A DNA stretch of 64,000 nucleotides from a virus: positions 1-64,000 of the IMG/VR virus record IMGVR_UViG_3300020020_000002; one strand, given 5' to 3'. The notes under the pieces are model-generated. The model was not told where the DNA came from, searched no databases, and saw only the letters and a list, made by a program, of their open reading frames with translations. The position numbers and the translations under genes are program-made. Below, one piece after another: positions 2,400 to 52,251 of the stretch; position 1 is the stretch's first letter; each line of letters opens with the position of its first letter.

Positions 2400-2762
2400 T
2401 TACGACACTACGCCCCAGTCATTTGCGCTGGCCAGAAGACCGAGTTTGCGCGCCAGCTCGGGATTGTCGTGCGGCCACTCCCGGCACGCCCGGCAGGTCG
2501 GTGCGAAGTAGCGCGTGTCCCACAAAAGCGATCCGTTTCGGCCGCGCATGTGGTGGATCTCGCTCGATCGCATGGAGACACCGAACACAATCGTGCAGAC
2601 CCGGCAGTGCCGGTGGATGCGCAGGTATTCGCGCCGGACTTTCACGTAGATCGCGTCGCGCGTTTTCTGCTTCGCGCTTTTCTTCGCGAGTGGCGTGCGC
2701 TTCAGCTCGGAGGTGCCGCGCTTCATCGGCGTCTTGCGCCGCAGTGATGTGCGCCGGTTCAT
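2400..2762 (-). CDS. small Cys/His-rich nuclease-like protein (HNH/Zn-finger type, tentative)
   Basis: Track ORF trimmed to ATG 2760-2762 (MNRRTSLRRKTPMKRGTSELKRTPLAKK...); basic N-terminus then CRVC...HHMRGR...CRAC cluster as in small phage HNH proteins; ATGA overlap with upstream stop. Confidence 0.4.
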   Translation of the reverse strand: MNRRTSLRRKTPMKRGTSELKRTPLAKKSAKQKTRDAIYVKVRREYLRIHRHCRVCTIVFGVSMRSSEIHHMRGRNGSLLWDTRYFAPTCRACREWPHDNPELARKLGLLASANDWGVVS

Positions 2763-3883
2763 AGCTGATCGCAATACCAGCCGCCGCGCTGCAGGTCGCT
2801 GATCTGCGCGAAGGCCATGGTGTATTGACCCGAGAGATTCCACATCGAGAAGCGATGCGCGGCGACATTGCGGATCACGTCGCGATCCCAGTCGGGGCCT
2901 TTCGTGATAGCCTTCTCGACCGCCGTGATCCAGTCGTCCAGCGTGCGTGGCAGCCAGCCATTGAAGCCGTCCTGAATGTATTCAGGAAACGCTCCGAATG
3001 CAGACGCGATCACGGGTGTGCCGCAGAGCAGTGCCTCGACCGCTACACCACCGAACGGCTCGACGTAGCGCGTTGGACAAATCACGGCGTGCGCGTTGCC
3101 GAGATAATTCGCTCGACCCTCGCTCGGTGGACCGTGGAAGGGCGAAACCGGGTAGACGTTTTTCCTCACCCATGGCGAAGGATCGCCTTGCCCGCAGATC
3201 GTGAAATCGACATGCGGCATTCTCTTCGCGATCTCCTCGATGATCCGCAGGCCCTTGTCCTCGTTGAGTCGACCCATAAACGCGATCGTGGGTTTTTCGT
3301 TGCTGGGCATTTTGCCGATTCCGAGCGGCCAATCCTCGGGCTCGTAGTAGTTCGGGATCGTGAACCAGTAGTCGTAACCCATCACCACGCCGTTCGGAGT
3401 CTCCCGGCCGAGGTGCACGTTCATCCACGCATTGCTCTCGTAGATCCGGTGTCGGGTGAAGGCCTGCCGGTAGCCAATGCCTGTCTCGACCCAAAAGGCC
3501 ATCTTGCAGCGCGGCCCGGTGAGTGCCTCCATGTGCGCCGTGCCGAACGGCAGGCAGATGATGTCACCCGGCTCGACCCGCGCCTCCAGCTCCTGCCCGA
3601 GGTGCCCATTGAACTCTTGATAGAGCTTCGATCCGATCTGCGCGGAGTTGCCATATTGCTCATCGCCCGGCTCGCAGCCGCCGAGCTTTTTGTATTCCTC
3701 CGCGTCGAGGATCTCGACCTGCTCTTTCGCGCCACTCTCGCTGCCTGCATTGCCGTAGTGGATCACGTGGTGGCCCTCATACTGCATCATCGGCGAGAAC
3801 CGGAGCACCTTGCCGGTGAAGGCGCAGCAGGAAAACGATGGGTGGGTGTAAGTGTGCGGGATTCCGAGCAGATGTAGCTTCAT
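2759..3883 (-). CDS. glycosyltransferase, GT-B fold (GT4-like)
   Basis: Track ORF 2759..4567 trimmed to ATG 3881-3883 (MKLHLLGIPHTYTH...); C-terminal EPFGGVAVEALLCGTPVIASAFGAFPEYIQDGFNG matches the GT4 E-x7-E nucleotide-sugar region; promoter cassette upstream. Confidence 0.75.
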   Translation of the reverse strand: MKLHLLGIPHTYTHPSFSCCAFTGKVLRFSPMMQYEGHHVIHYGNAGSESGAKEQVEILDAEEYKKLGGCEPGDEQYGNSAQIGSKLYQEFNGHLGQELEARVEPGDIICLPFGTAHMEALTGPRCKMAFWVETGIGYRQAFTRHRIYESNAWMNVHLGRETPNGVVMGYDYWFTIPNYYEPEDWPLGIGKMPSNEKPTIAFMGRLNEDKGLRIIEEIAKRMPHVDFTICGQGDPSPWVRKNVYPVSPFHGPPSEGRANYLGNAHAVICPTRYVEPFGGVAVEALLCGTPVIASAFGAFPEYIQDGFNGWLPRTLDDWITAVEKAITKGPDWDRDVIRNVAAHRFSMWNLSGQYTMAFAQISDLQRGGWYCDQL

Positions 3884-3942
3884 CGCCTGTCGTCTACCGC
3901 AACGGCTTGCCAGTGTCAAACCGCGCGACCGAGCGCGGTCTG
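3884..3942 (-). promoter_or_regulatory. promoter cassette P9 (leaderless-type) overlapping the fibre gene 3' end
   Basis: Minus strand: ACCGCGC-N6-GCGCGGT inverted repeat, TTGACA (3914-3919, overlaps fibre stop)-17 nt (GCAAGCCGTTGC)-TAGACG-7-ATG(3883). Confidence 0.5.
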
Positions 3943-6798
3943 GAGGTTCTGTGTGGCTGTGTAGAACGCGGCCGCCTCGGCATCGGTCAGGCCCAGCCCG
4001 ATCGACGCCATGCCTAAATATCCGCCATAGGGATAGAGCGGCGAGCCCGCGTTGTTGCGTGCGCCGATGAAGATCGGCCCACCCAGCGGCGTGGGTGGCG
4101 AAACCGTCGTGACCTTGGTCGCCACCGCGACGCCTCGGTTGAAACCTGCGGCGCTGCTGAGCGATCGGCGCGTGACGATGTTGTGCGAGAGTGCATTGGT
4201 CCACGAGCCCGCCATGCGACCGTCGGAAATGAGGTTGCAGTCGAAAGTCACCGAGGTGGCCGTGGCGATGAAGATGCCCTCCATGCTGATGATCGACTGG
4301 TTGCCGTCGTAGAGCCCGATAATGTCGCACGCCGATCCGAAGGCGCTGCGCGCGTAGACTGAAACGTGGAAGTCGGCGAGGTTCATAAACGCCGAGGAGT
4401 TGACCACCGGGTTGCCGTAGCCAGTCGTGCCGTTGAGTAGCACGCCGTTCAAGTCGTGCGTGACGCCGCCGACCCACGTCATCGGGTAACTCGACGACTT
4501 GAGGTTTTGCGCGTGTGTTGCTCCCGTGCCGCCAACAAACGGCCAAAGTGCCTGCATCTTGGTCCACACGCCAGCCGCCTTGAGTTCCGAAATGTAGACG
4601 TTGATTGCCGCCTTCGTTGTGGGTCCAGTGATGCCAGCGCGGGTGAAGAAATCAGCCGCCTCGGCGTGCATCGGAGAGATCGGCACAATGACCTGCACGA
4701 AACCCTGCGTGCCGTTGCCGCCTGCGCCGCTCGGCGTGCCGTTCACACCGCACCCACCGCCACCGCCGCCCGCACCGTAGCCGATACCGTTCGCGCCCGC
4801 GCCGCCCGCGATGCCGCTGCCGCCGCACCTGCCGCCACCGCCGCCAAGGCCGAAGCAATAAACCAAGTCGTTAGAGTTGGCCTGCCCTCCCGGCGTGCCT
4901 TGCGTGGTCAAGCCGCCGATGCCTCCCGGTAAAAGGGTCGAATTGCCGCTGCCCAAGGTGCCCGCGTTGCCGCCGTCGCCGCCGACATTTCCCGTGGTGA
5001 GCCCGCTGCCGCCACCGCCGCCCGTGGTTGCCATAAAAATCGGGATGTCGGCACCCCAACCCGGGGAACCTTGCCCGCCCGCGCCGCCGCCGGACGTGGA
5101 AAGTGCCGCGCCGTAGATGACGATGCCGCTCGTGAGACTCGCGCCGCCTGCCGGGTTGCCACCGCTGCCGCCGCCAGTGCCGAACCCGCCACCCTTGGCT
5201 TGCATGGTCGCGAAAACGCTCGTGCCACCCGCGACGCCGTTGATTCCGTCCGTGCCGGATGCCGCCTGCGCTGCGCCGCCCGCGCCTGCTGGACCGACGG
5301 TAACCGTCACCGTGGATGGCAAAAGCGAAACTTTCATGCGGGTTATCACGACGCCTGCGCCCGCGCCACCTGCGCCGCCTGTTCGCGCCGTGCCCGATCC
5401 ACCCACGCGCCCGCTGCCGCCGCCACCACCGCCGCCGACGAGCGTGACGTCAGCGTATGCGCTAGGGTTAGCGTTCGCCGGTTTCACCCACGTTCCACTT
5501 GTCGTGAAAGTCTGAATGTTCAGGCCCTCGACCGTGTCGACCGATGCACTGCTACCGCTTGGTCCTGTCGCGCCCGTTGGGCCGGTTGCACCCACGCCGC
5601 CTGCCGCGCCGCTTGGTCCCGTTGGGCCGGTCAATCCGGTTGGACCGACGACGCCTTGGATGCCCTGTGGTCCCGTCGCACCCGTCGTGCCCTTGATCCC
5701 GGTGGGTCCGGTCGCGCCACTGGGACCGCTCACGCCTTGTATTCCTTGCGGGCCTTGCAGACCTGTCGGGCCGGTCGGTCCTACCGCGCCCGCTGTTCCT
5801 GTCACGCCCGTTGGCCCGGTTGGACCGGCGACGCCTTGAGGGCCTTGGATGCCGGTCGGTCCCGTTGGTCCTGCCGGGCCTGCGCCACCCGGTGCGCCTG
5901 CCGTGCCGCTCGGGCCAGCCGGGCCGGTTGCGCCAGATGGTCCGATCGCACCTTGAGGGCCTTGAATTCCTGTCGGACCAGTGGGTCCGGCGACCCCTTG
6001 GGGCCCGGTTGGACCCACTGCGCCCGCTGTGCCAGTTACGCCGGTTGGACCCGTCGGACCCGCCGCTCCAGCGGGCCCTTGGGGCCCTGTGGGCCCTACT
6101 GCACCGGCAGGGCCGGTTGCGCCTGTGGGACCGGGCACAGTCGAGTTTGCTCCGGTTGGTCCCTGCGGGCCGGTTGCACCGCTCGGGCCGATCGCACCTT
6201 GGATGCCCTGCGGGCCGGTTGGTCCAGTCGCGCCGGTCAAGCCGATCGGACCAGTCGGACCTACTGGGCCGGTGGCTCCGATCGGACCCGTCACGCCGGT
6301 CGGTCCCATCGGGCCTTGGATGTTGCCCGCGTCGATCCATGTCGCGGTATCGGCATCCCAAATCCAAAGGTGGTCGTTGTCCTCGGACACGTAGGCGTCG
6401 CCATCCTCCATTCCGGCCGTCGGCAGGTCGCCCGCCGTCGGCACGGTGCCTTTGACGTTGATCCCGGTGCCTGCCGCGCCGGTTGCGCCGGTTGGGCCTT
6501 GCGCTCCGCTGGGGCCTTGTGGGCCGGTTGGCCCCTCGGGACCAGTCGCGCCCGTCAACCCGGTTGCCCCGGCTGGCCCGGTTTCACCGATCGGACCAGT
6601 CGCACCTGCCGGGCCGGTTGGTCCAGTCGGTCCTGCGCCGCCTGCGCCACCGCCGCCGAACGGCTCGATGTTGCCCAGCCAGTCGATCGTGTAGAACTCG
6701 TAGTCGGCCTTGCTGAGAAAGACGCGCTTGCGGCCGGTGGCGGGCAGGCTGGGGGGCTTGTTGACCGATTCCCACGTGATTGAGGTTTGTGGATCCAT
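3916..6798 (-). CDS. tail fibre: collagen-like G-X-Y repeats + glycine-rich domain + C-terminal lectin/LamG-like domain
   Basis: Track ORF; two long Gly-X-Y blocks separated by [26 protein letters not shown] (motif common in collagen-like phage fibres), a poly-Gly-rich block, then a ~270-aa globular C-terminus; ATG 6796-6798 shares one nt with the stop of the giant ORF (TGATG); GTG 6799-6801 is an alternative start. Confidence 0.8.
5556..6318 (-). repeat. collagen-like Gly-X-Y triplet repeat block 2 (coding)
   Basis: Continuous GPTG/GATG/GPQG triplets in the fibre translation; 9-nt periodic GGN-CCN-NNN DNA; boundaries approximate. Confidence 0.8.
6463..6657 (-). repeat. collagen-like Gly-X-Y triplet repeat block 1 (coding)
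   Basis: [52 protein letters not shown] in the fibre N-terminal region; boundaries approximate. Confidence 0.8.
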
Positions 6799-9700
6799 CA
6801 CCGAGCAAGGGCACCCTTTTTAGGCTTACCCTTGCCCTCGGACAACTTCAAACCACGCAGCGCAGGCTCCTTACCTTTGGCGCTCGGCGCTAGTCTTCCT
6901 CGTCCCTGTCCTGACCCGGGATTAGGCCTGTCTCCATAACGTAGATTTCCTCCAACGTCATCACCTCGCCGCGCTCGGCCATCGCCTTTTGCGACGCCTT
7001 TAGGTTCTCCACCATGGCTGGCTCTAGCCCACGCTGGAGTAGCGATTCCTCTTCCGATAAGTTGTTGTCGAGCTTTGGCATCAGGAAGAGCTTGCCATGT
7101 TCCGCGCGCCTTTGCAACCGCTGCCTTGTCGCGCCGCATCTTTGGCGAGTAGAGCCCGCGGATCGCTTCCCACGTGATGCTCTGCATCTGCCGGGGCAGA
7201 AGTCCGCGCTCCTCGGCCGCTTTTTTGTAAGCGTCGAGGTAGAGATGGTAGGATCCAGAGATCCCGAGCCCCTCACTGCCGGGCATACCCTTGGATCCGA
7301 AATTGTGCGTGACCTCCAGCGCCGAGGATCCGAGCGGCAGGATGTGCGCGGCCGCGACCGCGTGGGTGTCCATCGTGGCGTCGCCAAACGGCGTGTTGGG
7401 CGCGATGATGTTGTTGTAGAAATTGCGGACCTTGTGCTCGTTCGAGAGGTTGTCCGAAATGCTCGTGAGATCCCCGTTTTTGAGCATGCGCACGCCCTTC
7501 TTGATTTCCTCCATCGAGCCCCAGCCGTTGCGCTGCGGGGTGCCGTCGTCTTTCGCTGCCAGATGCATTGGATCGCCGTCGGGTGACACGACCCGGTAAT
7601 CCCGGCCGTGCAGGCTCTGCGCCAGCGCGCGGATCGCCCACGCCTGCAGGTGCGGATCTGCATCCAGCTCGGCGACACTCTTGCCGAGCATTTGCTCCAA
7701 CAGGGCGCGCCGTTTGTCGCGCGCCTTCTCGTGCAGTTGCTCGTTGTGGCTGCGTCGGCGCAGCGCCCCCACTTTTGTTTCGCCCGGCTTCGCCTTGCGT
7801 AGCTCTCCCGGCTTCGCCACGGCACCGCTAATCATGTCCTCCAGCTCCGCGCCGACTAATTCCGGCGTGATCTTGGTGTCTTGGTGGTTCTTCCACACGT
7901 TCATCAATTGCTCGGCTTGCGCCACGTTCATGAACCAGTCTTTCTGCGGACTGAGCGCCGCCAGCACGCCCGCGGCCTGCTCGGGTGTGTAGCCAAAGCG
8001 GCCGCCAAAGTCCTTCGCGATCTTATTCGCACCATCATACCACCGCGTGGCCGCAGCGCGCACCTCGGCCGGGAATGCGTCGTGCAGCGCGAGCAGGTTT
8101 TTCACCATCCAGTCGATGGTCTTTTGCCGCTTTACCTGCGGATCTTTTTCGCCGCGGATCTCCTGCGAGAGGTGTGGGTAGTTGAAGGCCTCCATCTGCC
8201 GAGCGAGCAGCTCGGGTGGCACGATGCCACCGTGGATGTTCGAGTCCTGCGGGGTTGGCGCTGGCTTGGCCGAGGTGCCTAGCTTGGCGGTGCCGACGCG
8301 CAGCGGATCGTCGACCGGGCTGGGCTCGCTGATCTTGGCCTCGCCGCCACCCGGCATGAGCTGTGCCTCGGGGGCTGTCGCTCTGATTGCATCCCGCGCC
8401 GCGACCGCGTCGTCGTAGCTCTCGTGCAGCGGCACCTGCTCGCGCTCTGCGTTGTAGTCGTAGTTGGGATCAACCGGTCGATTCGGATCGCGCGTCATGA
8501 ACACGATGTCCGGCTCGCCTGCTTTGTCATACGGCCAGCCCTCGGGCGCGTATTCGCGGTTGAACTTAATTCGGCCCGTGGGGCGGAACCCGATGTTCTG
8601 ATACAGGTTGGGGAGAAATCCGTTGATGTCGTAGGCGTCGAGCGTCTCGGCTCCCTGCTCTACCGCCTCTTTCAGGTGGTCGAGAATCTTTGCTTTTGAT
8701 CCCGGCTTTTTGAAGACCGAGACGAGATCCCCATCCGGTGTCACCGCGACGCCTGCGGTGTCGTCGTCTGCAAGGATGAGCTTGTAGCCCTCCTTTTGGT
8801 ATTCGCTTACGTCTTTGATTTCGACGGCGGCACCGAGCGGGTGACCTGCGACAGCTTCTGTGATCGCGCGGTGGAAGCGGTCACCTGTTTCAGCTCCTCC
8901 TGCGTGAGTTCGATACCCAGTGCCAGCGCGTTGTCCGACATCTTGGCCTTGATCTCCTCGGGGCTGTGTTTCTTGGCTGGTTTTTGTGGCTTGCTCATTT
9001 GGTCGAATTGTTTCGGCGGGCACTGTAGCACCTGTGTCAACGGCTTGCGCTAGCGCGCCCTTCTTGGCGGGAAGCGCCATCAGTTGATCGGGCGCGTAGG
9101 AGTCCAGTTCTTGCAGGCTGGTGATTTTGTGTGACGTTTCGTCCTGCTCGTGGAACGCGTAGATCTCCTCGCCCTCGCTCCAGCGACGGTGCGCGTCTTC
9201 CCGGTTCGAGATCGGCTCGCCCTCGCCGCCCCCGGGCATGAAATTGACCTCCTGCTGGCGCGTCATTCGCTCGATCGCTGCGCGCCGCATCTCCGCATCT
9301 CCGCGGGTATAGCTGACGGTCTTGATGCCCTGCTTTTCGAGCATCGATCGCAGCGCGGGATCAATCGAATCGGGCACGACCGCGGCCGCGAATTTTTTAC
9401 CCTCCAGCGGCACGATGTCGGACACCTTGCCCTCGAAATACTCGGTGGGCAGTTTTCGGATCTTGTCGAGAAACTCCTGCGTCATGGCAGCCATGTTCTC
9501 GTAGTTATCGCCGTAGACATTGCGCAGGTGCTTCTCATCACCCTCGATGAAATCGATCACGTCCCGCTCGGTCGTCTCGGGATCCATCTCCTGATCCTCG
9601 CGAATCGATTCGAGGTCTTCGCGCAGGCGTGCGAATTCGCGCGCCGCTTTCTTGGTGACGTTGGTCATCTCCTCCCTTGGGATCACTCTCTCACGGTCTG

Positions 9701-12700
9701 CGCCCATCTCTTCGAGTGCACCGTAGCCCTTGGCCACTCGCGCCCGCATGCCGCCCGCACCAAAGCCTTCACCTTCGCCACCGCGCAACTTTTCCGCCTT
9801 CATCACCGCCATGACGTTGTCGAGCGTGTGCTCGATGTCGGGCTTGCCTTCGACCTTGATGACATCCTTCGGTTTCGCGCCAGCTTCGTCCACCTTTTGC
9901 TGGATCCACTCGGCGACCTTTTCACGTTGGCCGGTCAGTTTTCCGATGAGTTGCATACGCAGCTCGTGCTCCTCCAGCTTCGTCGACGGGGCCTCCAAGA
10001 GCCCGTGCTCGCGCAGGTAGGCGTATTCACCTAGGTGGTTCCAGCTCGCTTCATCGAAGCCTCTGCGATTGATCGAATCGACGATCGATTGCGGCGTCCA
10101 TTCCTTGGGGCCATACGGGTTCTTCTGCGTGATCGGCCGGATCTCTTGCGCGTATTTCTCAAAGGCGTTGGCCACCTTGCTTGCGTTCTCGCCTTCATAC
10201 GTGGCCATCGTGTGCGGATAGCGCGGGCTGTAAATGTCGGCGTCAAACCACTTCATCGCCGGGTTTTTCTGCGGGTCGACCAAGTCCTTCCCGCCGATCA
10301 GCGTGATCTCGCCAAAGCCGCCGAACTTGCTGCGATCGAGCCGCACGCCTGCGACACTAGGCATCGCCAGCCCGCCCATCTTGAATGCGTGACGCAGGGC
10401 ATCCTCGCTTAGGTTGTGCACGGCCCCCATGTTCCGGCGCGCGTCGGCCTCTTCGAGATTCCACTGGTCGGCCACTTTTTGTGCGTCGGCCGCGGTTTCG
10501 CCTTGATAGACAGGTTCTGTCTCGCCCTCGACCTCGACGAAGTGCTTGTCGCCTTTCTTGACCACCTTCGCGATCTCGACCTCGGGTTCCAGTGCACCCT
10601 TCTTGGCTTCGCCATCGCCGCCGCCGGGCATGTAGCTGAAATCGGGCAGCACCTTGCTCGACACGTCGGAATAGGCGACGTCGCCGCGGGCATCGCTTTC
10701 GCTCTCCCTGAATTCGGTGGGGAAGAGTTTATTTCGCACCTTGAACGCTTCTTTCGATGTGACCCACGAGGTTAGTGTGTCCTTGCCTAGGCGCTGCATC
10801 TCCTTGGCCATCTCGCGATACAGCGCCTCGCCGTAGCCCTTGCCGCGGGCGAAGGCCTCGACGTGCGAGCTGTTGACTTGGACGGTCCCGTCCGGCCGGT
10901 GCGTGTAGGCGATGTAGCCGACATCCTTCCCGCTGTCGTCTTGGATCTTGATCTCACCCCAGCCGCGCTTGGTGTCTTCCCGGGTGCTGGTCGTGTAGGG
11001 TGGCAGCTTGGCTTTGCGCTCATCGAGGGCCCGTTGCGATGGACCGCCGAACTCCTCGCCTGCCAACGTGCCTTTCGGCCGCTCTGCGATCGCTTCACCG
11101 CCGCCGGGCATGAAGCCAGCAGCGACGTTGCCCCAGTTGATGCCCTCGGGCGAGAACTCACCGGCCGGTGCTTCGAGGCCGACCTTGCGCACGATCGCAG
11201 GCTCGCCGCTCGGTGCGGTGCGCACGTCCTCGATCATGTCGGGGCTCAGATTCTCCCACACGCTTTCGAGAATGTCGCCCGTGCCAACGCGCGTCTCACC
11301 CGCCTTGTTCGTGTAGGTGAACTTGCCGCCTTTGTTGAGCATTGCGCGGAACGGATTGACGTCACCCGTTTGGTCGTCGACCGCCCACTGGTTTTCCTTG
11401 GCCACGCGTTGCGCGTCCTCGGCCTTGAGTTGCGTTTGCGGCTGCAGCGCGGGACGCTTGCGCACCTTGACGCCCGTCGCCCGGGCTGCTTCGTCGGCTG
11501 CGAGCTTGCGGGCGTGCTCGGCTGGCTTGCCGCTGATGTCGTAGTTCAGCGCCGCGTTGAGAATATCGAAGCGGCCGCGCTCGATCGGTATCGGCACGCC
11601 GGTTTGCGTCATGCCCTCCACCGGCCCGCTGCCGTCACCCTTGTAGCCGTTCTTGTGGTTCTCGACGTAGGCCTTGATGTCCTCGCGGATCGCCGGGTCG
11701 TTGATGTCGGCGTAGATCTTGGCCTTGGCTTGCTGCTCCGGTGTCAGGTGCGTCTTCGCTGCGCCGAGAAGTTTCGAGAGGTTGGCGACCAGCTTGTCGA
11801 GGCTGATGCCCCGCTGCAGCACCTTGCCGTTTTTCGTCACCTCGACGCCCGTGAAAACGATGCCCTTGTTTTCCTGCATGAGCTGGCGCGACTTTTTGCC
11901 TTTATCCAGCTCGTAGTCGCGCTTGCGTTCCTTGCCGGTGATGTCGTCGGGATCCACCGCCTTCTCCGCGCTCCAGTAGTCGACGTAGCGGATGTCGCCG
12001 CCCGAGTCGGCTGCTTGGATCTTCGCGATGTCGCCCTCGCCCATGCCGAGCTGCCGCACGAGCGCCCGGTGCTCGGGTTTGTTGAAGTCGAGGCGGCCGC
12101 TGTAGGCCACCCGGCCGGTGAGCGGATCTGTGCGACGCTGGAAAAGCCGTGGATCGCCCTCGGCGGCCTGATTGGCGAGATCGAGCGCCGCCTGATTGCC
12201 ATCGGGCGCGGCCTTGATGAGCGAATCGGCCGCATCGTCGTCGACCGTGCGTGCTGGCAGGATCCCGGTGGGTCTTCCGACGCCTTCCGATGGTGCTTCG
12301 GCCGGTGCAGGCGAAATTTGGGCCTCTTCGGCCGGTTTTGGCGCTGGGGGTGCCTCGCTGGAAGGGGTCACAGGCTCGCTAGGGCTCGATTCTGACGCTT
12401 TTGGCGCATTTTCCGGTGCTAGAGCGCCCTGACGGGGCTGGGAGGCCATTTCTGGCACCCCACCGGCCAGTGCTCCGCGCCCAAACGGCCCCACGCCGGT
12501 CGGTGTGGGCATTGGAGGCACAGGAACGCGTGCCGGGGCCGCTGGTGGCGCGGCTGGAGGCACCACAGGCGGCGCACCGGGGGCAGGCGGCCCGCCGGTT
12601 GGCGTCGGCGCTGGGGTTGGTCCCGCTGGCGGTGGCGTCGACGGGTCGACATTGAGCGCGGTGCGCGCCGCGGGTGACACGATCTGGCGCAGCGCATCGA

Positions 12701-15104
12701 GGTAGATGCCGGTGACCTCGGCGTTTTCCTTGTGGTTGAAATACGATCGTCCTCCGACCTCCCGCGGATCGATGCCAATCTTGCCGCCGAAAAACTCACC
12801 GATGCCGCGCTGGATCTTGTCGCGGATCCCTTCGGGAATGACGAGATCGGCCGTGCCCTTGGTCGAGAAAATGCGGCCCGCGGTTTCGGCGACGAACTCG
12901 TCGATCGCCTGCGCGTCGGTGAGCGGCCGCGCGCCGCTCTTTGTGAGTTCCTTGTTGTAGCCGTCGATGAACTGCTGGAATTCAGGCGTCGGCTTGCCGC
13001 TTTTGTCGGTGAGCTGCGCCTTGATCTTGCCCATTACGCCGTCGTAGAGCGGGCCTCCCTTGCCGCTGAACGCGCGCAGGATGTTTTGCGCGACGTGGCC
13101 ACCCATCTCGTGGCCTGCGACGTGGCCGAAGACACCTTTGCCCTCGGGCCCCATCATGCTCGGGTGCTCCGCGTTCACGTAGGCCTTGCCGTTATGCATC
13201 GCGAGGCCGCGATCGTTGCCTGCGGGCAGGCCGCGCTCGGCTTTGAAGGCGGCGTAATCGGCCGCGCTCAACGGCACGATCTCGCTCACGCCTTTTTGAC
13301 CCTGCGGGCCGGTCGTTTCCATGCCGCCCAGTGCGTCCGTCAATTCGTAGACCATGTTCTTTCCCGCCTCGGGCAGCCGTTGCACATAGCGTGCGCTGGC
13401 CTGACTCCACTTGTCGCCCCGCTGCGCCATCTCGGTGAAGCGCGCTTGGCCGTTCGCACGCATCGACGGCAGGATCGCCTTGGTGAACTGCGGCTTGAGC
13501 CCGCCGGTCAAGCTGCCCATCGCGCCGAACAGCGGTGCACCCTCGGAGAGCGCCGCAAAGTTACCCCAAAAGTTTTCTTTGTCGCCCGCCGCCATCGCGA
13601 GGTTGAGCGGTGCCGCACCGACTGGCGTCGCCAGCATGTCGATCACCGTGTTGCTGGCTCGCACCTTGGCGTTGGGGATCGCAGTCTTGGCGAATTTCGT
13701 GAGGGCTGGTGCGCCTGCGGTGGCCCGGGCTGCCTTGGCCGCCGCCTCGGTGGCTGGCGCGACCCACGTGCCGTTGGTCAGGGCTTCAAATCCCTGTTGG
13801 CGCAAAACCTTCGCTGCGCCGCCGATCTTCGCCAGCGCGCCCGCGGCGAGGATGCCCGCGCCGATCTTGCCCGCATTCTTCCAGTCGCCCTCGATGATCT
13901 TTTGCGCCGCGGCATAACCACCGCCCGCGGCCGCACCGCCGAGCACCAGCCTGCCGCCTTTCGTTGCGAGCACTTCCCCGGTGCCACCCAAGGCTGTGGC
14001 GAGCGCGCCACCCACGCGGCGCATGCCGGGCAGGCCGGGCGTTTTGATGAGCATGAGGTTCGTCGGATCCATGATCGCGCCGATCGCGGCTGTCGCACCC
14101 GGGTCGACCGGTTCCGCGCCGATGCGTTTCAGGTTTTCGGGCCCAAGGATTTCACTCACCGGCACGCCTTCGTTTCTCCACTTCATGTAGTCGGCCACCG
14201 CGCCTTCATCGAGCGGGATGCCGCTCGCGAGTTTGATGTCTTTGCGCGTCGCGCCGACGGTCTGGCCGAACTTGTTTTTCAGCGCCTCGCGTTTCGCGTC
14301 TTCGGGTTCCAATTGCGCGACCATTACGTTGACCTCGGCGCTTTCCTTGGGCGTCAGCGGCTTGCCTGCGCGCGCTTTCATGAGCGCGGTCGTGAGCATC
14401 GGGCCGTAGATCTGCGCGTAGGGCACCTTCTTGCCCGCCTGCAGGATCTCGCCGCGTCCTTTCAAATAATCGGGCAGCACGCCGACCGCTGCGTCGATGC
14501 GCGCCGGATCGGCCGCGAATTTCTTTTGCGCATAGTCGAGCGGCAGTTGTTCGCCCCAATCGAGCAACCCGCGAGCGAGCCGCTCGCCGCTTTGGCCCGC
14601 CATTTGCACGCCGATCACGTTCTCGGCCGTGGTGGTCGCTGCGTTCGGGTCGCTGAGAATTGCTTGGCCCGCTTGCTTGAACAAGCGCGGCACGCTCATT
14701 GCCATGCCGCGGCCCCAGCTCCCGAATCCGCTGGCCACGTCACCAAACGTCATCTTGTGGCTGTAGTGCGGGTAGGTCTTGCCCTCGGGATCCTTGAAGC
14801 CGCGCGCCGCCCGCGCTTCGTGGACCTTGAACGCGAGATCCTGACTGGCCGGATCCTCATACTTCGCGGCGAACGTGATCTCGTCAAAATTCGGATCGTC
14901 GATCGTCTTTTGCAGGTCGTCCGGTTTTTCGCCGAGCAGATCCTCCAGACTTTGCGACGGTTTCGCCGGGGGTGGGAATTTTTCCTGCGCCGCGGCGGTG
15001 CCTTTGCCGCCTGTGGCGAGGTCGAGTTCAGCGATGTCGGTGATCGGCTCCTGTGGTAGGTCGGCCGCTAGATCATCGTCGAGCAAAGAGGAAAGTTGAG
15101 GCAT
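6798..15104 (-). CDS. giant multidomain virion/ejection (polyvalent-type) protein; 2768 codons as one open frame, 3' limit and internal continuity uncertain
   Basis: Track ORF. Gly/Ala-rich glycine-zipper-like stretch (about 13690-13980), Pro-rich linker (about 12400-12700), GNAT-type motif [15 protein letters not shown], second acetyltransferase-like module ([18 protein letters not shown]...YAPEGW), conserved C-terminal module (RWYDGAN...ALSPQKDW..N; KVRNFYNNI). Sits where T7-like phages place internal core proteins, between internal proteins and the fibre. Confidence 0.7.
6890..7081 (-). CDS. small acidic protein (63 aa) overlapping the 3' end of the giant ORF in another frame
   Basis: C-terminal part of track ORF 6890..7825 from ATG 7079-7081 ([63 protein letters not shown]); natural composition and better G/C third positions than the overlapping giant-ORF frame. 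Confidence 0.5.
   Translation of the reverse strand: MPKLDNNLSEEESLLQRGLEPAMVENLKASQKAMAERGEVMTLEEIYVMETGLIPGQDRDEED
8807..8998 (-). CDS. alternative-frame ORF inside the giant gene (63 aa; [38 protein letters not shown]...)
   Basis: Track ORF 8807..9040 from ATG 8996-8998. Over its first 40 codons I count 31/40 G/C third positions versus 13/40 for the giant-ORF frame over the same DNA. Confidence 0.35.
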   Translation of the reverse strand: MSKPQKPAKKHSPEEIKAKMSDNALALGIELTQEELKQVTASTARSQKLSQVTRSVPPSKSKT

Positions 15105-15108
15105 AGGA

Positions 15109-17193
15109 TCATCGTGCTGGCGTTTTGGGTGTCAGTCGCTCGATTTGCGCACGGATCCGCGCTGCCTCCTCGGGCGTGATCGCTCGACCTTCGTGCATGC
15201 CGGTTGTCAAGATTTCCGTGAGTGCAGTGAGCCGTTGATCGGGGGCCATCGCTGCTGGCTTGGTCGCTGCAGTCTCAGGGACGCCGCCGCTCGTAGCGTT
15301 CTTTTGCATCTCCTCATACCACTTGATCGCCTTGGCTGGGACGCCCACGCGCTGCGGTGTGGTTTTGACTTCCTTCGCGGCCTCGATCGTATCACCGATG
15401 TTCTCCATGTAGTCGCGCTTGGCTGCCTCGTGCACGAGCGTCACCGTGTCGTAGATATCTTTCATCTGCTGCGGCGTCGCCTGCTCGCCGGATTGCGCTT
15501 TTTCCCACGCGAGCTGGATCTGATCGCCGAGGCCGAGGGTGTCGGCCGCTGCCTTGTATTCTCCGCTCAACACTGCGCTGTTGCGATCGTTGAGCTTGTT
15601 CATCTGGAAAACAAACGTGCGCTGCTGCTGCTTGTTTTTGATGTTCTCAAAGCTGTTGCCGTTTTTCGCGAGCATCTCATCGAGCGTTTTCTTGATGTCG
15701 TCGATGCCCTGCATTTGGCCGGATCCGAACAGCGCGACCGTGCTCGGTTGCTTGTAGTAGCCTTCGCGGATGCTGTGGATCGCCGAGATCTTTTCTGCGG
15801 GCTTGAGCGGCACGCTGGTTTCCAAGATCGACGACATCTCCTCCTCGGTCATGCCCTCGGGATTCTTGCCGCGGGCGATCACCGCTTTCTTCAGCGCGAG
15901 GTGCGCAGGCGAATCTTTCCGCGCTGCTTTTTCCATGATCGCCTTGCGCTGATCCTCGCTCATCGACGCGACCTCTCGCGCCGTGTGGCCCTGCTTCATG
16001 ATCGTCTCGTCTTCGAGCTTGCGCAGATCGGCCGAGGTATCTTTGACCGCGGTGACTTTTTTGTCGCCCGGCCGCAGCACTCCGGTCGTCAGGCCGTTGG
16101 TGCGCTCGACGATCGGTTCCATCCGTTTCGGCACCCGGCGCGCGTCCGCACCATCCGAGGCGTAGAAGTAGCCGTTGTCACCAAAGACCGATGGCGGCTT
16201 GACCGTGGGCGGGAGCGCGGCCGGTGCCCTTACCGGTGCAGGTGCGACCTGCGCGGCTGGGCGGGCCGCTGGTGTGGGTGCGACCGCGTTGGCGGGCACG
16301 GGTGGCAGTTCCTCGATGTCGCCTTGGCCCTGCTCTTCGACCGCAGGCGGTGTGACCTGCGCGAGCTGGGCGGCCTCTGCCACTTTCACGTAGGGGCTGG
16401 GATCGATCCGCTGCGCGAGCGGTTGCACGGGCCCGGTGAACTCTTCCGACCCGGGCTTGAGCGCGGCGAGTGTGCCGTTGGCGGCTGCCTCTTGGCCGAT
16501 CTGTGCGAGCGCCTGCTGGCCCTGCGGCGTCTGCGCTGCGGCGAGCGCGGGCTGGGCTGCGGCCGCTTCGGCCGTCGGCGCACCTTTCGGCACTGCAGGC
16601 TCGGGCGGCGGGTTGTAAAAAAGCGCGCTGTCTTGGTCGGTCGCGCTGGCCGGGGCGGCGGATGGTATTTCCGCGCCGATCTCGGGCGAGCTGGTGAGAT
16701 CCGTCGCGGCCGCGGGGAGTTCAGTGGCATCGGTGCCGCCTAGACCTCCGAGCACGTCGATCGGGTAGACCGGCTGCGAGCCACGCATCGCCTTGGCCGC
16801 CTGTGCGCGCCGATATTGAGCGTTGGTGATCGCCTCGTCGTATTTGAGCTGCCGCAGGAGCGGATCCACCGGCTTGTAGCTGATCGTGTCGTCAGCTCCG
16901 AAGGTGAAATCTTCCAGTGCCTTTCCGCCCTCACCAAGTTTGCCCATCTTGTATTCGTGGGCGGCTCGGGCCTGTGTCCGCGTGCGACCGGCCTGCTCGG
17001 CCTTGCTCAACAGCTCGGGTAATTTCGCGATCGTTTCGGCGGCCATGTTCATCGTGGCCGCGCTGCCTGCCAAGGTGGCTGCGCCACGCAGGTCCGGCAC
17101 GATCTCAGTGGGTGTGAACGTGCCCGTTTTCGGCGCGACGTAACGCACGCCGGGCAGGCTGTAAGGTTTGAGGCCGGATCCGAGTTCAGGCAT
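15109..17193 (-). CDS. internal virion protein candidate (694 aa, Ala/Pro/Gln-rich centre)
   Basis: Track ORF; position between a TM-anchored protein and the giant protein; low-complexity middle, helical charged C-terminal half. Confidence 0.45.
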   Translation of the reverse strand: MPELGSGLKPYSLPGVRYVAPKTGTFTPTEIVPDLRGAATLAGSAATMNMAAETIAKLPELLSKAEQAGRTRTQARAAHEYKMGKLGEGGKALEDFTFGADDTISYKPVDPLLRQLKYDEAITNAQYRRAQAAKAMRGSQPVYPIDVLGGLGGTDATELPAAATDLTSSPEIGAEIPSAAPASATDQDSALFYNPPPEPAVPKGAPTAEAAAAQPALAAAQTPQGQQALAQIGQEAAANGTLAALKPGSEEFTGPVQPLAQRIDPSPYVKVAEAAQLAQVTPPAVEEQGQGDIEELPPVPANAVAPTPAARPAAQVAPAPVRAPAALPPTVKPPSVFGDNGYFYASDGADARRVPKRMEPIVERTNGLTTGVLRPGDKKVTAVKDTSADLRKLEDETIMKQGHTAREVASMSEDQRKAIMEKAARKDSPAHLALKKAVIARGKNPEGMTEEEMSSILETSVPLKPAEKISAIHSIREGYYKQPSTVALFGSGQMQGIDDIKKTLDEMLAKNGNSFENIKNKQQQRTFVFQMNKLNDRNSAVLSGEYKAAADTLGLGDQIQLAWEKAQSGEQATPQQMKDIYDTVTLVHEAAKRDYMENIGDTIEAAKEVKTTPQRVGVPAKAIKWYEEMQKNATSGGVPETAATKPAAMAPDQRLTALTEILTTGMHEGRAITPEEAARIRAQIERLTPKTPAR

Positions 17194-18172
17194 AGTATTT
17201 TCCTACGGGTTGCCAAGTTGTTCCGCCGGGGTAAAGCGCCCGCGAGGGTCGGACAGCTCCGCTCACGCTGGTCGCGGCCGGTTGCCTTGTGGCACTCGTC
17301 GCGCCTGCGCCGTATTTCGAGCCATAGGCACCCGCACCCGCTTGCAGGGCGGTCGTAGCTGCGGAGGCGATCGCCGCGTTGCGTGCCGCATCTGCCTCGG
17401 CTTGCGCTTTCGCCATCGCGTTTTGCGAGGTCATCGCCGCGTTGGACTGCTCCATCGCCTGACCGACGCGTGCTTTCTCCGCTTCAAACTCGCGTTCGTA
17501 GTTCGCGGCGGCCCACGCATTTTTGTTCTCCACGTCGGCGATCGAGCTTTGCACGTAGTCCTGACCGGTCATGCCGAAGGTGCGGCGTGGGAAGATCTCC
17601 TCGGCCATCGAGAGTGACTTTTGCCGGTTGGTCCGGTTGCGGTCCTGAAAGCCCATGATGTCGAGCCCAAGGTGCCGGGCGACGTTGGCCTCGCCCGCGC
17701 TGCCCGGGGCCAGCACGCTGCCTGCGCCGGTCGTGCCGAGGCTGCCGAGCGTGTCGGCGATCCCGGCGCGCATGAACTCGCTCTGCAGTTGCGGCATCAG
17801 CTCGTGCTCGCCTGCCCAGTCCTTCGCGACTTCGGCCTCGAAGGCTTTCTCTGCGCCGACGATCGGCTTGTGCCGCTTGCGGAAGTCGGCATCGCTGCGC
17901 GCGTAGGCGTTGGCGTCTTCCTCGATCGCGCGTGCTTGGTTCGACTTGAAATTCCACGGCTGATAACCCGGCAGCTCCGGTGGCGTGAAGAGCGGTTGCC
18001 CCGCGATCGCCGCTTGGCTTTGCGCATTCGTCGCAGCCGCCTGTTTCTTGGCGTCCTTGGCCTGTTTGTTCGCCATGACTGCGCCACCGACGGCCGTGAC
18101 CACCGTGACGCCTGCCATGACCCATGTGAACCACCCACCGATCGTGAAAAAGCGTTTCCAGAAAATGCTCAT
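17186..18172 (-). CDS. internal virion/ejection protein candidate with N-terminal TM helix (328 aa)
   Basis: Track ORF MSIFWKRFFTIGGWFTWVMAGVTVVTAVGGAVMA...; hydrophobic N-terminus, Ala/Gln-rich tail; overlaps neighbours by 4-8 nt. Confidence 0.45.
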   Translation of the reverse strand: MSIFWKRFFTIGGWFTWVMAGVTVVTAVGGAVMANKQAKDAKKQAAATNAQSQAAIAGQPLFTPPELPGYQPWNFKSNQARAIEEDANAYARSDADFRKRHKPIVGAEKAFEAEVAKDWAGEHELMPQLQSEFMRAGIADTLGSLGTTGAGSVLAPGSAGEANVARHLGLDIMGFQDRNRTNRQKSLSMAEEIFPRRTFGMTGQDYVQSSIADVENKNAWAAANYEREFEAEKARVGQAMEQSNAAMTSQNAMAKAQAEADAARNAAIASAATTALQAGAGAYGSKYGAGATSATRQPAATSVSGAVRPSRALYPGGTTWQPVGKYYA

Positions 18173-18705
18173 GCGAGTGCTGGTTTGAGTTGAGTTTTGG
18201 AGGCGAGCAGAACCGCCTCGGTGGTGTTGCGATCGATCAGGCGATCTTCGAGGGTCGCCGTGTCACGACAGTCGTCAGGGTTGGCGTGGATGGTCTGCCA
18301 ACGGCAGGTTTGAAGGACGACGAACATCTTGAGCACGCCCGCACCACTGACGAAGACCTGCGGCGCGTGCAGGGTGGCCGGTTTGCCATTTTCGTCGATG
18401 TAGCGAATCGAGCCGGTGAGCATGATGTTGAAATGCTCGGTTTTGTGCCGCTTGCCGAGGATGAAGGTGCCGAAGGGCATCTCGATCTCGCGCAGGTAGA
18501 CGCCCGGTGCCCAGCGTTCGATCACCGGGCACTTGGCCTGCGGCTCCTTGACGAGTTGAGCGCCCAACGCGAGGGACGCGCCAACCTCGGCGTGTTCGAG
18601 CAACAGCTTGTCGATCGATTCCCGCTGCTTGCGGGTCAATTTTCTCAACTGCGTTTTAAACGCAGTTGATTTTTGTGGTGCCGTAAGTGGTTTGTTGCTG
18701 CTCAT
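18169..18705 (-). CDS. hypothetical protein (178 aa), possible small beta-barrel fold
   Basis: Track ORF 18169..18855 trimmed to ATG 18703-18705 (MSSNKPLTAPQK...), ATGA overlap with the tail-collar gene stop; a palindrome copy lies inside codons 13-20, so a start downstream of it cannot be excluded. Confidence 0.5.
   Translation of the reverse strand: MSSNKPLTAPQKSTAFKTQLRKLTRKQRESIDKLLLEHAEVGASLALGAQLVKEPQAKCPVIERWAPGVYLREIEMPFGTFILGKRHKTEHFNIMLTGSIRYIDENGKPATLHAPQVFVSGAGVLKMFVVLQTCRWQTIHANPDDCRDTATLEDRLIDRNTTEAVLLASKTQLKPALA
18645..18669 (+). promoter_or_regulatory. 25-nt perfect palindrome, copy 2
   Basis: Read directly; TTTCTCAACTGCGTTTTAAACGCAGTTGATTTTT; lies 33 nt below the tail-collar stop, inside the 5' end of ORF 18169..18705. 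Confidence 0.9.
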
Positions 18706-19379
18706 TTGCTGCGGACGATCCAGTTGATGACGAGGTGCGGAGGCATCGCCCGGGTGTAATTTGTGCCGGTCACCCCCGTGTAGACCATGACGTCGCCGGG
18801 GTTGGTGTTGGCCGCAGGTTGGCCGACGTGCTTGCTGTTGAGCCGCCGGGGCCATTCGAGGCCGTCGAATTGGTGCAGGAGCATCTCGCGCATCAGGCCG
18901 CCGGGCACACCTGCGGTGGCGAGCGGGTTGTAGTCGCCCTGCCCTGCGCCGAAAAACGTGCGCCCAGCCATGTTCGGCACGCGGAAGTGCGTGTCGTCAC
19001 CGCTCTCGGTCGATTTGATATAGGTCTTGCCGATCAGCGCGTAGAGTTCCTTGTAGTCGGCCACCAAATGTTGCCCGCCATCGAGCAGGAGATAGTTGGC
19101 CGGAACGACCGAGCCTAGGTAGGGCAGGATCGAGCCGATCGGATGCGTGTTGATCGGCTGATAGGTCGAGGTGTCGGCGTCCCACGTGTAGAGATACGGC
19201 CCGTCGATGTAGAGGCCGACGTTGCTGGTCGGCATCGCGCCGCCGATTTGGCCGGTCATGAAGTCGCCGCTCGCTTGGAAGGTCAGCGTGCTGAAGATCT
19301 GCTGCCTAAACTCGTCCGGCGTGCCCTCCCAGCCCTCGGGGAGTGGCACGCTGATCGGGATGATATTGATGTTGCCCAT
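18702..19379 (-). CDS. tail fibre protein with phage tail-collar domain
   Basis: IGSILPYLGSVVPANYLLLDGGQHLVADYKELYALIGKTY...FRVPNMAGRTFFGAGQG matches the tail-collar pattern (G.I..f.....P.gwl.cdGq.l....y..Lf.liG..y....F.lPd.rGr). Confidence 0.7.
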   Translation of the reverse strand: MGNINIIPISVPLPEGWEGTPDEFRQQIFSTLTFQASGDFMTGQIGGAMPTSNVGLYIDGPYLYTWDADTSTYQPINTHPIGSILPYLGSVVPANYLLLDGGQHLVADYKELYALIGKTYIKSTESGDDTHFRVPNMAGRTFFGAGQGDYNPLATAGVPGGLMREMLLHQFDGLEWPRRLNSKHVGQPAANTNPGDVMVYTGVTGTNYTRAMPPHLVINWIVRSK

Positions 19380-19382
19380 AGG

Positions 19383-52042: not shown

Positions 52043-52251
52043 TTGATGTGTTGCATCCATGCCTCTTGTTCGCCGCAAGCGAAGAGGAACTCTTTCAGAA
52101 CTTTGATCGCATCTTCACGCTGCATGCTGGACACGTAGCTAAGCTTTCCACCAGCGCCGAGCGGGGCCGTGAGCAGGATGAATGCGTGGTTGTCCGGCAG
52201 GTGTTGCTCGATCGCTTTGGCTGCATCTTTGAGGTAAGTTTTATCGGGCAT
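52039..52251 (-). CDS. hypothetical protein (70 aa)
   Basis: Trimmed to ATG 52249-52251 (MPDKTYLKDAAKAIEQHLPDNHAFILLTAPLGAGG...). Confidence 0.55.
   Translation of the reverse strand: MPDKTYLKDAAKAIEQHLPDNHAFILLTAPLGAGGKLSYVSSMQREDAIKVLKEFLFACGEQEAWMQHIK

Follow-up and report, generated by a model that had tools for sequence, protein, structure and literature searches.

The window analyzed here is a 64,000-nucleotide (nt) stretch of viral DNA, positions 1 to 64,000 of the IMG/VR virus record IMGVR_UViG_3300020020_000002. On its minus strand lies a gene that encodes a protein of 2,768 amino acids (aa), referred to here as the giant. The giant gene is preceded by genes for a 328-aa and a 694-aa protein and is followed by a tail-fiber gene. 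Alignment with homologous proteins divides the giant into a conserved carrier region and a variable array of cargo modules, with a short Phe-Met-Pro (F-M-P) peptide at the module boundaries. The carrier also contains a motif that resembles the active site of zincin metallopeptidases. The coordinates of all features are collected in Table 1.

The giant open reading frame (ORF) is a real, unbroken coding frame. A sequence-only reading of the window had described a single 8.3-kb frame at positions 6798-15104, and translation of the window reproduces it exactly, with an ATG start and a product of 2,768 aa. That reading had also considered that the frame might be broken into several separate genes, and the frame is intact. 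The GC content of third codon positions (GC3) supports coding, as it is 0.74-0.89 over most of the length of the gene, with dips limited to the Pro-rich linker, aa 2001-2200, and the C-terminal tail. Large plus-strand ORFs within the gene are high-GC shadows with a non-coding pattern (first-position GC of 0.80, above a GC3 of 0.66). An identical 2,768-aa protein is present on contigs of three separate assemblies, ERZ27268065 (74.3 kb, the longest), SRR7026342, and SRR7026343. The homologues found are all giants themselves, 1.5-3.9 thousand amino acids (kaa) long. Because of this and of the identity in three assemblies, the frame is not an assembly or frameshift artifact. A megablast search with the giant gene against 50,697 phage records gave no match.

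The carrier is the region that the giant shares with the homologues P0002 and P0003. These are 44-48% identical to it in BLAST alignments that run from aa 16-21 to aa 1334-1339. Past the carrier, both proteins continue into modules unrelated to those of the giant, one of which is a Zeta toxin. P0004 and P0005 show the reverse and possess GNAT, PBECR5, and DUF7178 modules as in the giant, while their N-terminal half is different. The giant is therefore, on the evidence of these alignments, composed of a conserved carrier (aa 1-1331) and an exchangeable, variable cargo array.

The hallmark domain of the carrier is S5. A phmmer search with S5 against 1.84 billion representative proteins matches 105 protein clusters, nearly all of 1.3-3.9 kaa, in which the domain is placed ~900-1,500 residues from the N-terminus. 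The shortest members of this family (~1.3 kaa) are made up of the carrier and a short tail, with little or no cargo. The end of S5 is conserved throughout the family and reads (G)LPxxxxVAAGF[MLS]P. Profile and member searches identify no Pfam or PDB relative of S5, and a search of 185,579 representative genomes of bacteria and archaea did not find the domain. The N-terminal region of the carrier has no match in Pfam or NCBIfam. Between these regions lie the Pro-rich linker, found as the sequence-only reading had described it, and the Gly/Ala-rich stretch, which is present with coordinates that differ by ~30-100 nt from those first given. The membrane insertion suggested for the latter is unsupported; its Kyte-Doolittle hydropathy reaches a maximum of 1.46 over 19 residues, which is below that of a typical transmembrane helix, and lysines lie inside the stretch.

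Table 1. Features of the giant gene and its neighbors, with window positions and strand.
Feature	Residues (aa)	Window position (nt)	Strand	Basis or remark
Giant gene	1-2768	6798..15104	-	2,768 codons and stop; ORF list and translation
Carrier N-terminal region, acidic N-terminus	1-364	14013..15104	-	no known domain
Gly/Ala-rich, weakly hydrophobic stretch	365-434	13803..14012	-	sequence; maximum hydropathy 1.46
Zincin-like region	585-812	12669..13352	-	motif, alignments, AlphaFold (AF2) model
HEMGGH	665-670	13095..13112	-	zincin-like motif
Glu736	736	12897..12899	-	conserved downstream Glu
Pro/Ala-rich linker	818-984	12153..12653	-	28 Pro in aa 801-900; variable among relatives
S5, carrier hallmark domain	985-1331	11112..12152	-	from PRLFQRR to ...NVAAGF-MP
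Delimiter 1, MPGGG	1332-1336	11097..11111	-	homology to P0002/P0003 ends at aa 1334/1339
Cargo module 1, GNAT acetyltransferase	1337-1491	10632..11096	-	Pfam Acetyltransf_1, motif RGKGYG
Delimiter 2, MPGGG	1492-1496	10617..10631	-	then KKGAL at aa 1501
Cargo module 2, PBECR5 predicted RNase and C-terminal extension	1497-1955	9240..10616	-	Pfam PBECR5, phrog_22978
Delimiter 3, MPGGG	1956-1960	9225..9239	-	between PBECR5 module and module 3
Cargo module 3	1961-2249	8358..9224	-	phrog_2563
Delimiter 4, MPGGG	2250-2254	8343..8357	-	homology to P0005/P0006 starts at aa 2256/2251
Cargo module 4, folded part, DUF7178	2297-2695	7020..8216	-	Pfam DUF7178, all-alpha
Basic Gly/Arg/Lys-rich C-terminal tail	2696-2768	6801..7019	-	ends KKGALAR
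694-aa protein, gp15-sized slot		15109..17193	-	no detectable homology
328-aa protein, N-terminal hydrophobic helix		17186..18172	-	weak T7_gp14 match
Collagen-repeat tail fiber, 961 aa		3916..6801	-	Pfam Collagen E 5.9e-22, many tail-fiber PHROGs
Three tail-fiber-like genes upstream of the gp14-like gene		18169-18855, 18702-19379, 19383-20870	-	PHROGs/public gene call

The giant contains at least six distinct regions in its 2,768 aa: the zincin-like region, S5, GNAT, PBECR5, module 3, and DUF7178. Polyvalent proteins of phages and conjugative elements typically combine 2-15 globular domains that are unrelated to each other, with PBECR, MPTase, ART, and LPDs as signatures of the class. Cargo module 1 is the GNAT acetyltransferase. 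When scanned as a segment, aa 1377-1449 match Acetyltransf_1 (E 2e-6, 28.5 bits against a cut-off of 20.7). Its RGKGYG sequence is invariant in the GNAT alignment A6 and fits the acetyl-CoA motif A (R/Q-x-x-G-x-G/A). The module is common to P0004, P0005, P0018, P0044, and P0046. In P0044, two tandem GNAT modules occupy aa 1990-2266, each ending in TTKYLP, a Leu variant of the delimiter.

Cargo module 2 is a predicted BECR-fold RNase. The PBECR5 profile (PF18814) matches aa 1555-1746 over profile positions 12-196 of 239 (E 1.8e-20, 74.3 bits against a cut-off of 25), and the module is shared with P0004, P0011-16, P0018, P0019, and P0040-42.

Cargo module 3 is composed of a short N-terminal piece, to about aa 2010, and a conserved domain at aa 2062-2245, within which phrog_2563 matches aa 2095-2205. 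Tblastn matches it to the C-terminus of actinophage 'minor capsid proteins' and to Streptomyces phage records named 'acetyltransferase'. The fusion to minor capsid proteins informs on location, not on chemistry. None of 10 members of the module matches Pfam, a profile search of the PDB reaches GNAT chains at E 1.5-1.8, and hhalign gives a probability of 0.4% against the module-1 GNAT profile.

The folded part of cargo module 4 is a DUF7178 domain, matched from aa 2325 onward (E 1.9e-26), in which QSITWE and a second motif are invariant. Its AlphaFold (AF2) model is all-alpha, with a predicted local distance difference test score (pLDDT) of 79.5 and a predicted template modeling score (pTM) of 0.79. 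Compared with PDB structures, the model matches no known fold (best E 0.55). In BFVD it has 16 significant matches, all to uncharacterized phage proteins, several of which are pieces of other giants. A literature search on DUF7178 returned no papers. The giant then ends in its basic tail; among S5-family members, 56 of 98 possess at least six Lys or Arg in the last 25 residues. No polymerase family was identified in the giant using Pfam, PHROGs, NCBIfam, or the PDB.

Three of the modules had been picked out by eye in the sequence-only reading. The GNAT motif is confirmed by Acetyltransf_1, the large module that was quoted (VHNLSEDAL...) is PBECR5, and the C-terminal module is DUF7178. A second acetyltransferase was proposed in the same reading for the module with LDAYDINGF..., which is module 3. 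The module is present, and its identity as an acetyltransferase is not supported by Pfam, the PDB, or hhalign; the name occurs in some GenBank records alone. The recurring MPGGG[E/D], the zincin-like HEMGGH...E, and the split into carrier and cargo were overlooked in that reading.

The modules of the giant are shuffled among its relatives. In P0018, PBECR5 precedes GNAT, and in P0006, DUF7178 precedes the module-3 domain. Relatives combine the giant's modules with ART-PolyVal, Zeta toxin, LPD, methyltransferase, and peptidase M23 in varied orders. Besides ART-PolyVal (PF18760), homologues carry PF18823, PF18834, PF18838, PF18857, and PF18858, which we take to be polyvalent-associated (LPD-type) domains. 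PBECR5 is among the predicted RNase families that were defined from polyvalent proteins, and RimI-like GNATs are also described there (PMC5512222). Together with PBECR5 and GNAT in the giant, the shuffled ART-PolyVal, Zeta toxin, and LPD domains of its relatives support the assignment of the giant, by domain content, as a polyvalent-type protein, as the sequence-only reading had suggested.

P0003 (locus L004, contig SRR26786808_9944) has a 326-residue insertion, aa 1536-1861, in a cargo module that is intact in P0002. The insertion lies between QYQLPGG and SNYKELVYTLP and matches Pfam LAGLIDADG_3 (E 2.1e-6) and, weakly, Hint_2. These matches suggest an intein, homing endonuclease included, within a giant polyvalent gene.

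The four copies of MPGGG in the giant are preceded by F, Y, F, and L, respectively, and are followed by E or D. Their positions are the Pfam and PHROG module boundaries and the limits of BLAST homology to relatives (1331/1334/1339 and 2251/2256). Synonymous codons differ among the four copies, so the delimiter is kept at the peptide level and does not stem from a recent repeat of DNA. The corresponding boundaries in close relatives are GFMPG, YMPN, KFMPA, RFMPE, RYMPA, etc.

Across the 105 S5-family representatives, [FY]MP is observed 250 times against 13.3 expected from shuffling. Almost all of these motifs (242 of the 250) lie beyond residue 900, downstream of the carrier. The number per protein rises from 0.9 in proteins under 1,400 aa to 5.2 in those of 3,000-4,000 aa, in correlation with length (r = 0.68). 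At the central position, Met is specific, with 242 observed and 7.8 expected (31-fold), and other residues there are at most about 2-fold enriched. The flanking residues are small upstream (Ala at -2, Gly at -1) and are Gly, Glu, Asp, or Ser downstream. The median distance from one motif to the next is 157 residues (interquartile range 89-317), roughly the size of one domain. Compared with random positions, homology breakpoints are 4-5 times more likely to lie within 15 residues of a delimiter. In the AF2 model, the 33 residues that follow delimiter 4 are predicted to be disordered.

A second, weaker motif, [KR][KR][GP][AIV][LF], is observed 32 times against 9.2 expected and follows some delimiters. 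KKGAL occurs three times in the giant, at aa 1501, at aa 2014, and at the extreme C-terminus (aa 2759-2768, nt 6801-6830, KKGALAR). Related C-termini read KKPALADY, EPALAR, and RKPALAEMK. P0018 contains MPTGGEPT..KKGAL three times. More distant giants, among them P0011, P0017, and that of phage LS06-2018-MD07 (LS06), do not have F-M-P, and their apparent boundaries are of the form I/L-R/L-F-Q/S, e.g., DIRFSR, TIRFQ, and ILFQ in LS06.

From their distribution, the F-M-P peptides appear to be module delimiters and most likely processing sites. Cleavage itself is proposed, and its probability is put somewhat short of even. The literature searched names no processing sites of polyvalent proteins, and searches for ejection-protein polyprotein cleavage sites and for internal virion proteins together with polyvalent proteins gave no papers. 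The polyvalent kind of protein is already known; the carrier family, the S5 domain, and the tripeptide delimiter were not found in the available literature.

The candidate for a processing enzyme lies in the carrier itself. His665, Glu666, His670, and Glu736 are invariant in the carrier alignments A1 and A2. The giant and its nearest relatives have HE-x-GGH (HExxxH), and distant members have HEGGH, HETGH, or HEAGH, the classical HExxH. An H-E-x(2,3)-H motif is found at about residue 500-700 in 99 of the 105 S5-family members, and at least 63 of the 105 have an E[FWY]x[AS]E-type motif ~70 residues downstream of it. In the AF2 model of aa 585-812, the order of elements is a strand, a helix, two strands, the HEMGGH helix, and later the Glu736 helix, which gives a beta-alpha-beta-beta start; HEMGGH and Glu736 are located in the predicted helices at model residues 75-96 and 146-163. 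Zincins account for 9 of the 21 top Foldseek matches to this model (collagenase H, anthrax lethal factor (LF), and PPEP-1 among them), none of which is significant (best E 0.83). No member has a Pfam match in this region, and there is no PDB profile match. The motifs and the model suggest that the carrier likely includes a zincin-like metallopeptidase.

The genes beside the giant agree with what the sequence-only reading described, with the 328-aa protein and its N-terminal hydrophobic helix and the 694-aa protein upstream and a tail fiber downstream. The same reading placed the giant in the internal-core position of T7-like phages. This is partly supported, and by gene order more than by homology, as the series of a ~320-aa protein, a ~600-700-aa protein, and a giant is conserved in related contigs (L004-L006). 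The Pfam T7_gp14 match of the 328-aa protein is sub-threshold (E 0.0089, 16.4 bits against a cut-off of 27) and covers the N-terminal helix only. The 694-aa protein has no match in Pfam, PHROGs, or the PDB or to the 632-aa protein of LS06 by BLASTP, and the whole giant has no sequence match in the PDB at E <= 1, gp16 included. The giant does not have a lytic transglycosylase domain, and no SLT or lysozyme family was identified in it with Pfam or NCBIfam. The upstream proteins of related loci show no gp14 or gp15 signal in Pfam.

LS06 encodes, in order, a tail protein, a true gp14 (E 1.2e-13), the 632-aa protein, and a giant of ~3,100 aa. BLASTP finds no similarity of the 328-aa and 694-aa proteins to this gp14 and its 632-aa neighbor. 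In the LS06 giant, DUF7178 and a class I methyltransferase are accompanied by a weak match to ART-PolyVal that does not reach the Pfam cut-off (E 1.2e-4), and its apparent boundaries are [IL][LM]FQ, not FMP. LS06 is a Rhodobacteraceae phage (L008, OP947163), and its giant spans the origin of the record and is annotated as 'methyltransferase'. In Roseobacter phage CRP-738, a DUF7178 protein is encoded directly after the portal.

The giant is bracketed by fiber genes on both sides. The GTG start of the collagen-repeat fiber overlaps the TGA stop of the giant (GTGA, window 6798-6801). The tail-fiber-like trio upstream has, in turn, a short tail fiber PHROG, a Collar domain (public gene call), and a tail-fiber N-terminal PHROG. 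Gene starts in this block are tightly coupled and are not preceded by a Shine-Dalgarno-like sequence (15105-15130, 17194-17218, 6798-6801); TGA-TCCT-ATG precedes the giant, and the 328-aa and 694-aa genes overlap by 8 nt. A glycosyltransferase of family GT4 at 2759-4567 on the minus strand (Glyco_trans_1_4 E 1.9e-17, phrog_3408) adjoins the collagen-repeat fiber and may glycosylate it. At 374 aa, the public gene call is shorter than the longest ORF of the GT4 gene, which overlaps the fiber gene.

Elsewhere in the window, ten other large ORFs have almost no matches in PHROGs or Pfam. The portal, capsid, and terminase are not recognized because the phage is so divergent. ORFs of 563, 462, 499, 824, 765, 576, and 627 aa are mostly without a Pfam or PHROG match. 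The 765-aa, 563-aa, and 694-aa neighbors have nothing significant in the PDB, and tblastn with the 563-aa ORF finds nothing in 50,697 phage genomes. The replication region, also on the minus strand, encodes a DNA polymerase III beta-type sliding clamp at 61114-62241 (phrog_947, E 1.4e-37) and a 462-aa protein with a TSCPD domain at 52241-53629 (E 3.3e-8).

The overall picture proposed here, of a carrier, delivered cargo, and delimiters in one virion-associated polyvalent protein, is considered rather probable. Of this picture, the single ORF, the domain identities, the split into carrier and cargo, the shuffling of modules, and the enrichment, placement, and peptide-level conservation of the delimiter across the family are observed, and packaging, ejection, peptidase activity, cleavage at F-M-P, and enzyme targets are inferred. 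The carrier is made up of an acidic N-terminus, Gly/Ala-rich amphipathic segments, the zincin-like motif, the Pro-rich linker, and S5 ending in AGFMP. The cargo array would consist of four or five independently folding modules, each closed by [F/Y/L]-M-P-G-G-G-[E/D], followed by the basic tail. Judging from the protein class and the gene context, the giant would be packed in the head together with the two upstream proteins and would exit through the tail at infection. An acetyltransferase, an RNase, and two or three unnamed activities would thereby enter the cell before phage gene expression. The chain would be cut into separate enzymes at F-M-P, most plausibly by the carrier's own zincin, and the same peptides may also be joints for module exchange between phages. 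A tape-measure role for the giant is rejected, as its chain consists of globular enzyme modules and its length is far too great.

Processing sites are the simplest reading of the F-M-P peptides because these are exposed, are selected as peptides, stand after every module, and travel with a peptidase-like motif. Iyer, Burroughs, Anand, de Souza & Aravind (2017) predict that an embedded metallopeptidase resolves polyvalent proteins into units (PMC5512222), and cleavage at F-M-P would realize this prediction. In its fullest form, the proposal is a true injected polyprotein. The chain would be threaded into the cell and cut at each F-M-P by its own zincin to free a programmable set of enzymes, with the tripeptide as a universal module socket. 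This form is tentative and is thought somewhat unlikely.

Several points weigh against the proposed picture. The packaging of the giant in virions is a prediction from class and gene context. The structural proteins of the phage are too divergent to give a morphotype. The gp14 match is sub-threshold, and neither the 694-aa protein nor the giant resembles T7 gp15, T7 gp16, or solved structures. The Gly/Ala-rich stretch is too weakly hydrophobic to be called a transmembrane segment, which makes membrane insertion a guess. The zincin assignment draws on motifs and on a mediocre model (pLDDT 59, pTM 0.63) with Foldseek matches at E >= 0.8. In addition, compared with the classical HExxH, the giant's HExxxH has an extra residue. 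This residue need not abolish activity, as dipeptidyl-peptidase III, with HExxGH, is an active zincin. The variant of the delimiter does not co-vary with the HExxH or HExxxH variant, and no pattern was found. Finally, the N4 virion RNA polymerase (vRNAP), a polyvalent giant with a peptidase domain, is packaged unprocessed (PMC5512222).

The alternative that survives best, although it is held to be unlikely, is that the delimiters are joints or linkers that are not cut. F-M-P would then cap the end of a fold or separate domains and provide microhomology for swaps, and the giant would act as one uncut chain. In a similar manner, VENN or DPxGL motifs demarcate the tips of polymorphic toxins. Each module type keeps its own terminal F-M-P across relatives (GNAT ...YMP/FMP/YLP; the GGFYSQLERV-type ...GQxxFMP), as joints would, and the order of modules varies between relatives. 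Carriers with little cargo already end in FMP and a ~40-aa tail, because of which the cargo array looks like insertions at the carrier end. The packaging of N4 vRNAP as an uncut chain (PMC5512222) fits this alternative as well. Against it, three residues (9 nt) are too short for homologous recombination, and the four copies differ at synonymous sites, which places selection at the level of the peptide. Structural caps seldom involve Met, whereas the middle position of the delimiter is 31-fold enriched in it. The flanks, small upstream and acidic or disordered downstream, are typical of exposed sites, not of buried strands, and the conserved peptidase motif travels with the arrays.

A second alternative, judged quite improbable, concerns the location of the protein. 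The giant would be an external structural protein associated with the tail or baseplate, or a non-virion protein encoded in the late region. Its gene does lie between tail-fiber-like genes (18169-20870 upstream, 3916-6801 downstream), the protein has no detectable homology to characterized internal core or ejection proteins, and the structural proteins do not reveal the morphotype of the phage. The enzymes of the array are nevertheless of an intracellular type (GNAT, BECR-fold RNase) with no obvious extracellular role. In other phages, these modules are attached to head-internal proteins, either at the C-terminal end of 'minor capsid proteins' or, in CRP-738, in the product of a portal-adjacent gene. 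The polyvalent class is defined by delivery with the DNA (PMC5512222), and phi24B gp47, a member found in virions, is invisible in a symmetric reconstruction. The weakest alternative, that the Met of F-M-P is an internal translation start from which modules are also made separately as nested genes, is most improbable: every delimiter has an in-frame ATG, a purine run similar to GGAGG or GAGG lies ~8 nt upstream of two of the four, and the giant and the 694-aa protein both begin with Met-Pro, but the invariant Phe or Tyr before Met and the Pro after it would be left unexplained, the other two sites have no Shine-Dalgarno-like sequence (nor do real gene starts here), Leu, Ser, or Gln variants exist at the Met position, and Met-Pro gene starts are rejected as the explanation of the motif since just 6 of the 60 predicted proteins of the window begin this way.

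With the carrier, cargo, and delimiter reading preferred, the F-M-P delimiter offers a first concrete candidate for the sites at which polyvalent proteins are cut or joined. Its presence beside a conserved peptidase-like motif gives exact residues to mutate and exact neo-termini to seek, and makes the question of processing directly testable. It also provides a simple rule by which phage "dark matter", thousands of residues of it, can be divided into domains. S5, module 3, and DUF7178 are three conserved domains of unknown function flagged for study and probably count among the earliest phage activities that enter the host. If the polyprotein reading is true, the giant would represent, in a bacterial virus, the equivalent of the polyproteins used by eukaryotic RNA viruses. 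Should the sites serve as joints alone, they would still make up a natural cassette system for loading proteins into phage heads.

The arrangement of the locus resembles that of T7 gp14-gp15-gp16, where a small membrane-anchored protein, a protein of 600-750 aa, and the largest protein are encoded beside a tail-fiber gene. T7 gp16 is ~1.3 kaa, about equal in size to the carriers with little cargo. T7 gp16 is not known to carry an array of cytoplasmic enzymes. No likeness in sequence or fold to gp15 or gp16 was detected, and the giant does not have a lytic transglycosylase domain.

In polymorphic toxins (CdiA-CT, Rhs, MuF-toxins), a short conserved motif precedes a variable toxin tip. The giant is similar in having a conserved carrier, variable enzymatic cargo, and a short peptide at the junction, and module 3 is also found at the C-terminus of MuF-like 'minor capsid proteins'. 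The giant differs in that its cargo modules are serial, with a delimiter after each and not one tip, and no immunity gene was noticed beside its gene.

N4 gp50, a protein of ~3,500 aa from a phage with a genome of ~70 kb, is carried in the capsid and leaves it together with the DNA on ejection. This virion RNA polymerase is a polyvalent protein with a zincin-like peptidase domain (PMC5512222). No RNA polymerase module was found in the giant, and gp50 reportedly remains unprocessed when packaged.

In a 2026 preprint on the Shiga toxin (Stx) phage phi24B, a podovirus, the 2,811-aa polyvalent protein gp47 is reported to be abundant in virions by proteomics and invisible in the reconstruction and is proposed to be an ejection protein (bioRxiv 10.64898/2026.04.10.717836). 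Because gp47 was found in virions, the idea that polyvalent proteins are ejected has experimental precedent. Points of resemblance to the giant are its polyvalent make-up and size, its gene at the end of the late region of a short-tailed phage, and a metallopeptidase domain, which in the giant is putative. Its own domains are LPD5, LPD1, LPD38, and MuF-C; it has no F-M-P motifs and no detectable similarity to the giant (best BLASTP E 4.7).

Within the polyvalent class as a whole, the giant is set apart by its carrier, as the N-terminal region, the zincin variant, and S5 match none of the Pfam families of polyvalent proteins. It is also set apart by the tripeptide that marks module ends in 105 clusters, no boundary motif being found in the text that describes the class (PMC5512222). 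What it shares with the class is a very large multidomain protein encoded among virion genes, the combination of PBECR with a RimI-like GNAT, a mosaic domain order among orthologues, and relatives with ART-PolyVal, LPD, and Zeta toxin. It also shares an embedded zincin-like motif of the kind predicted to carry out processing (PMC5512222).

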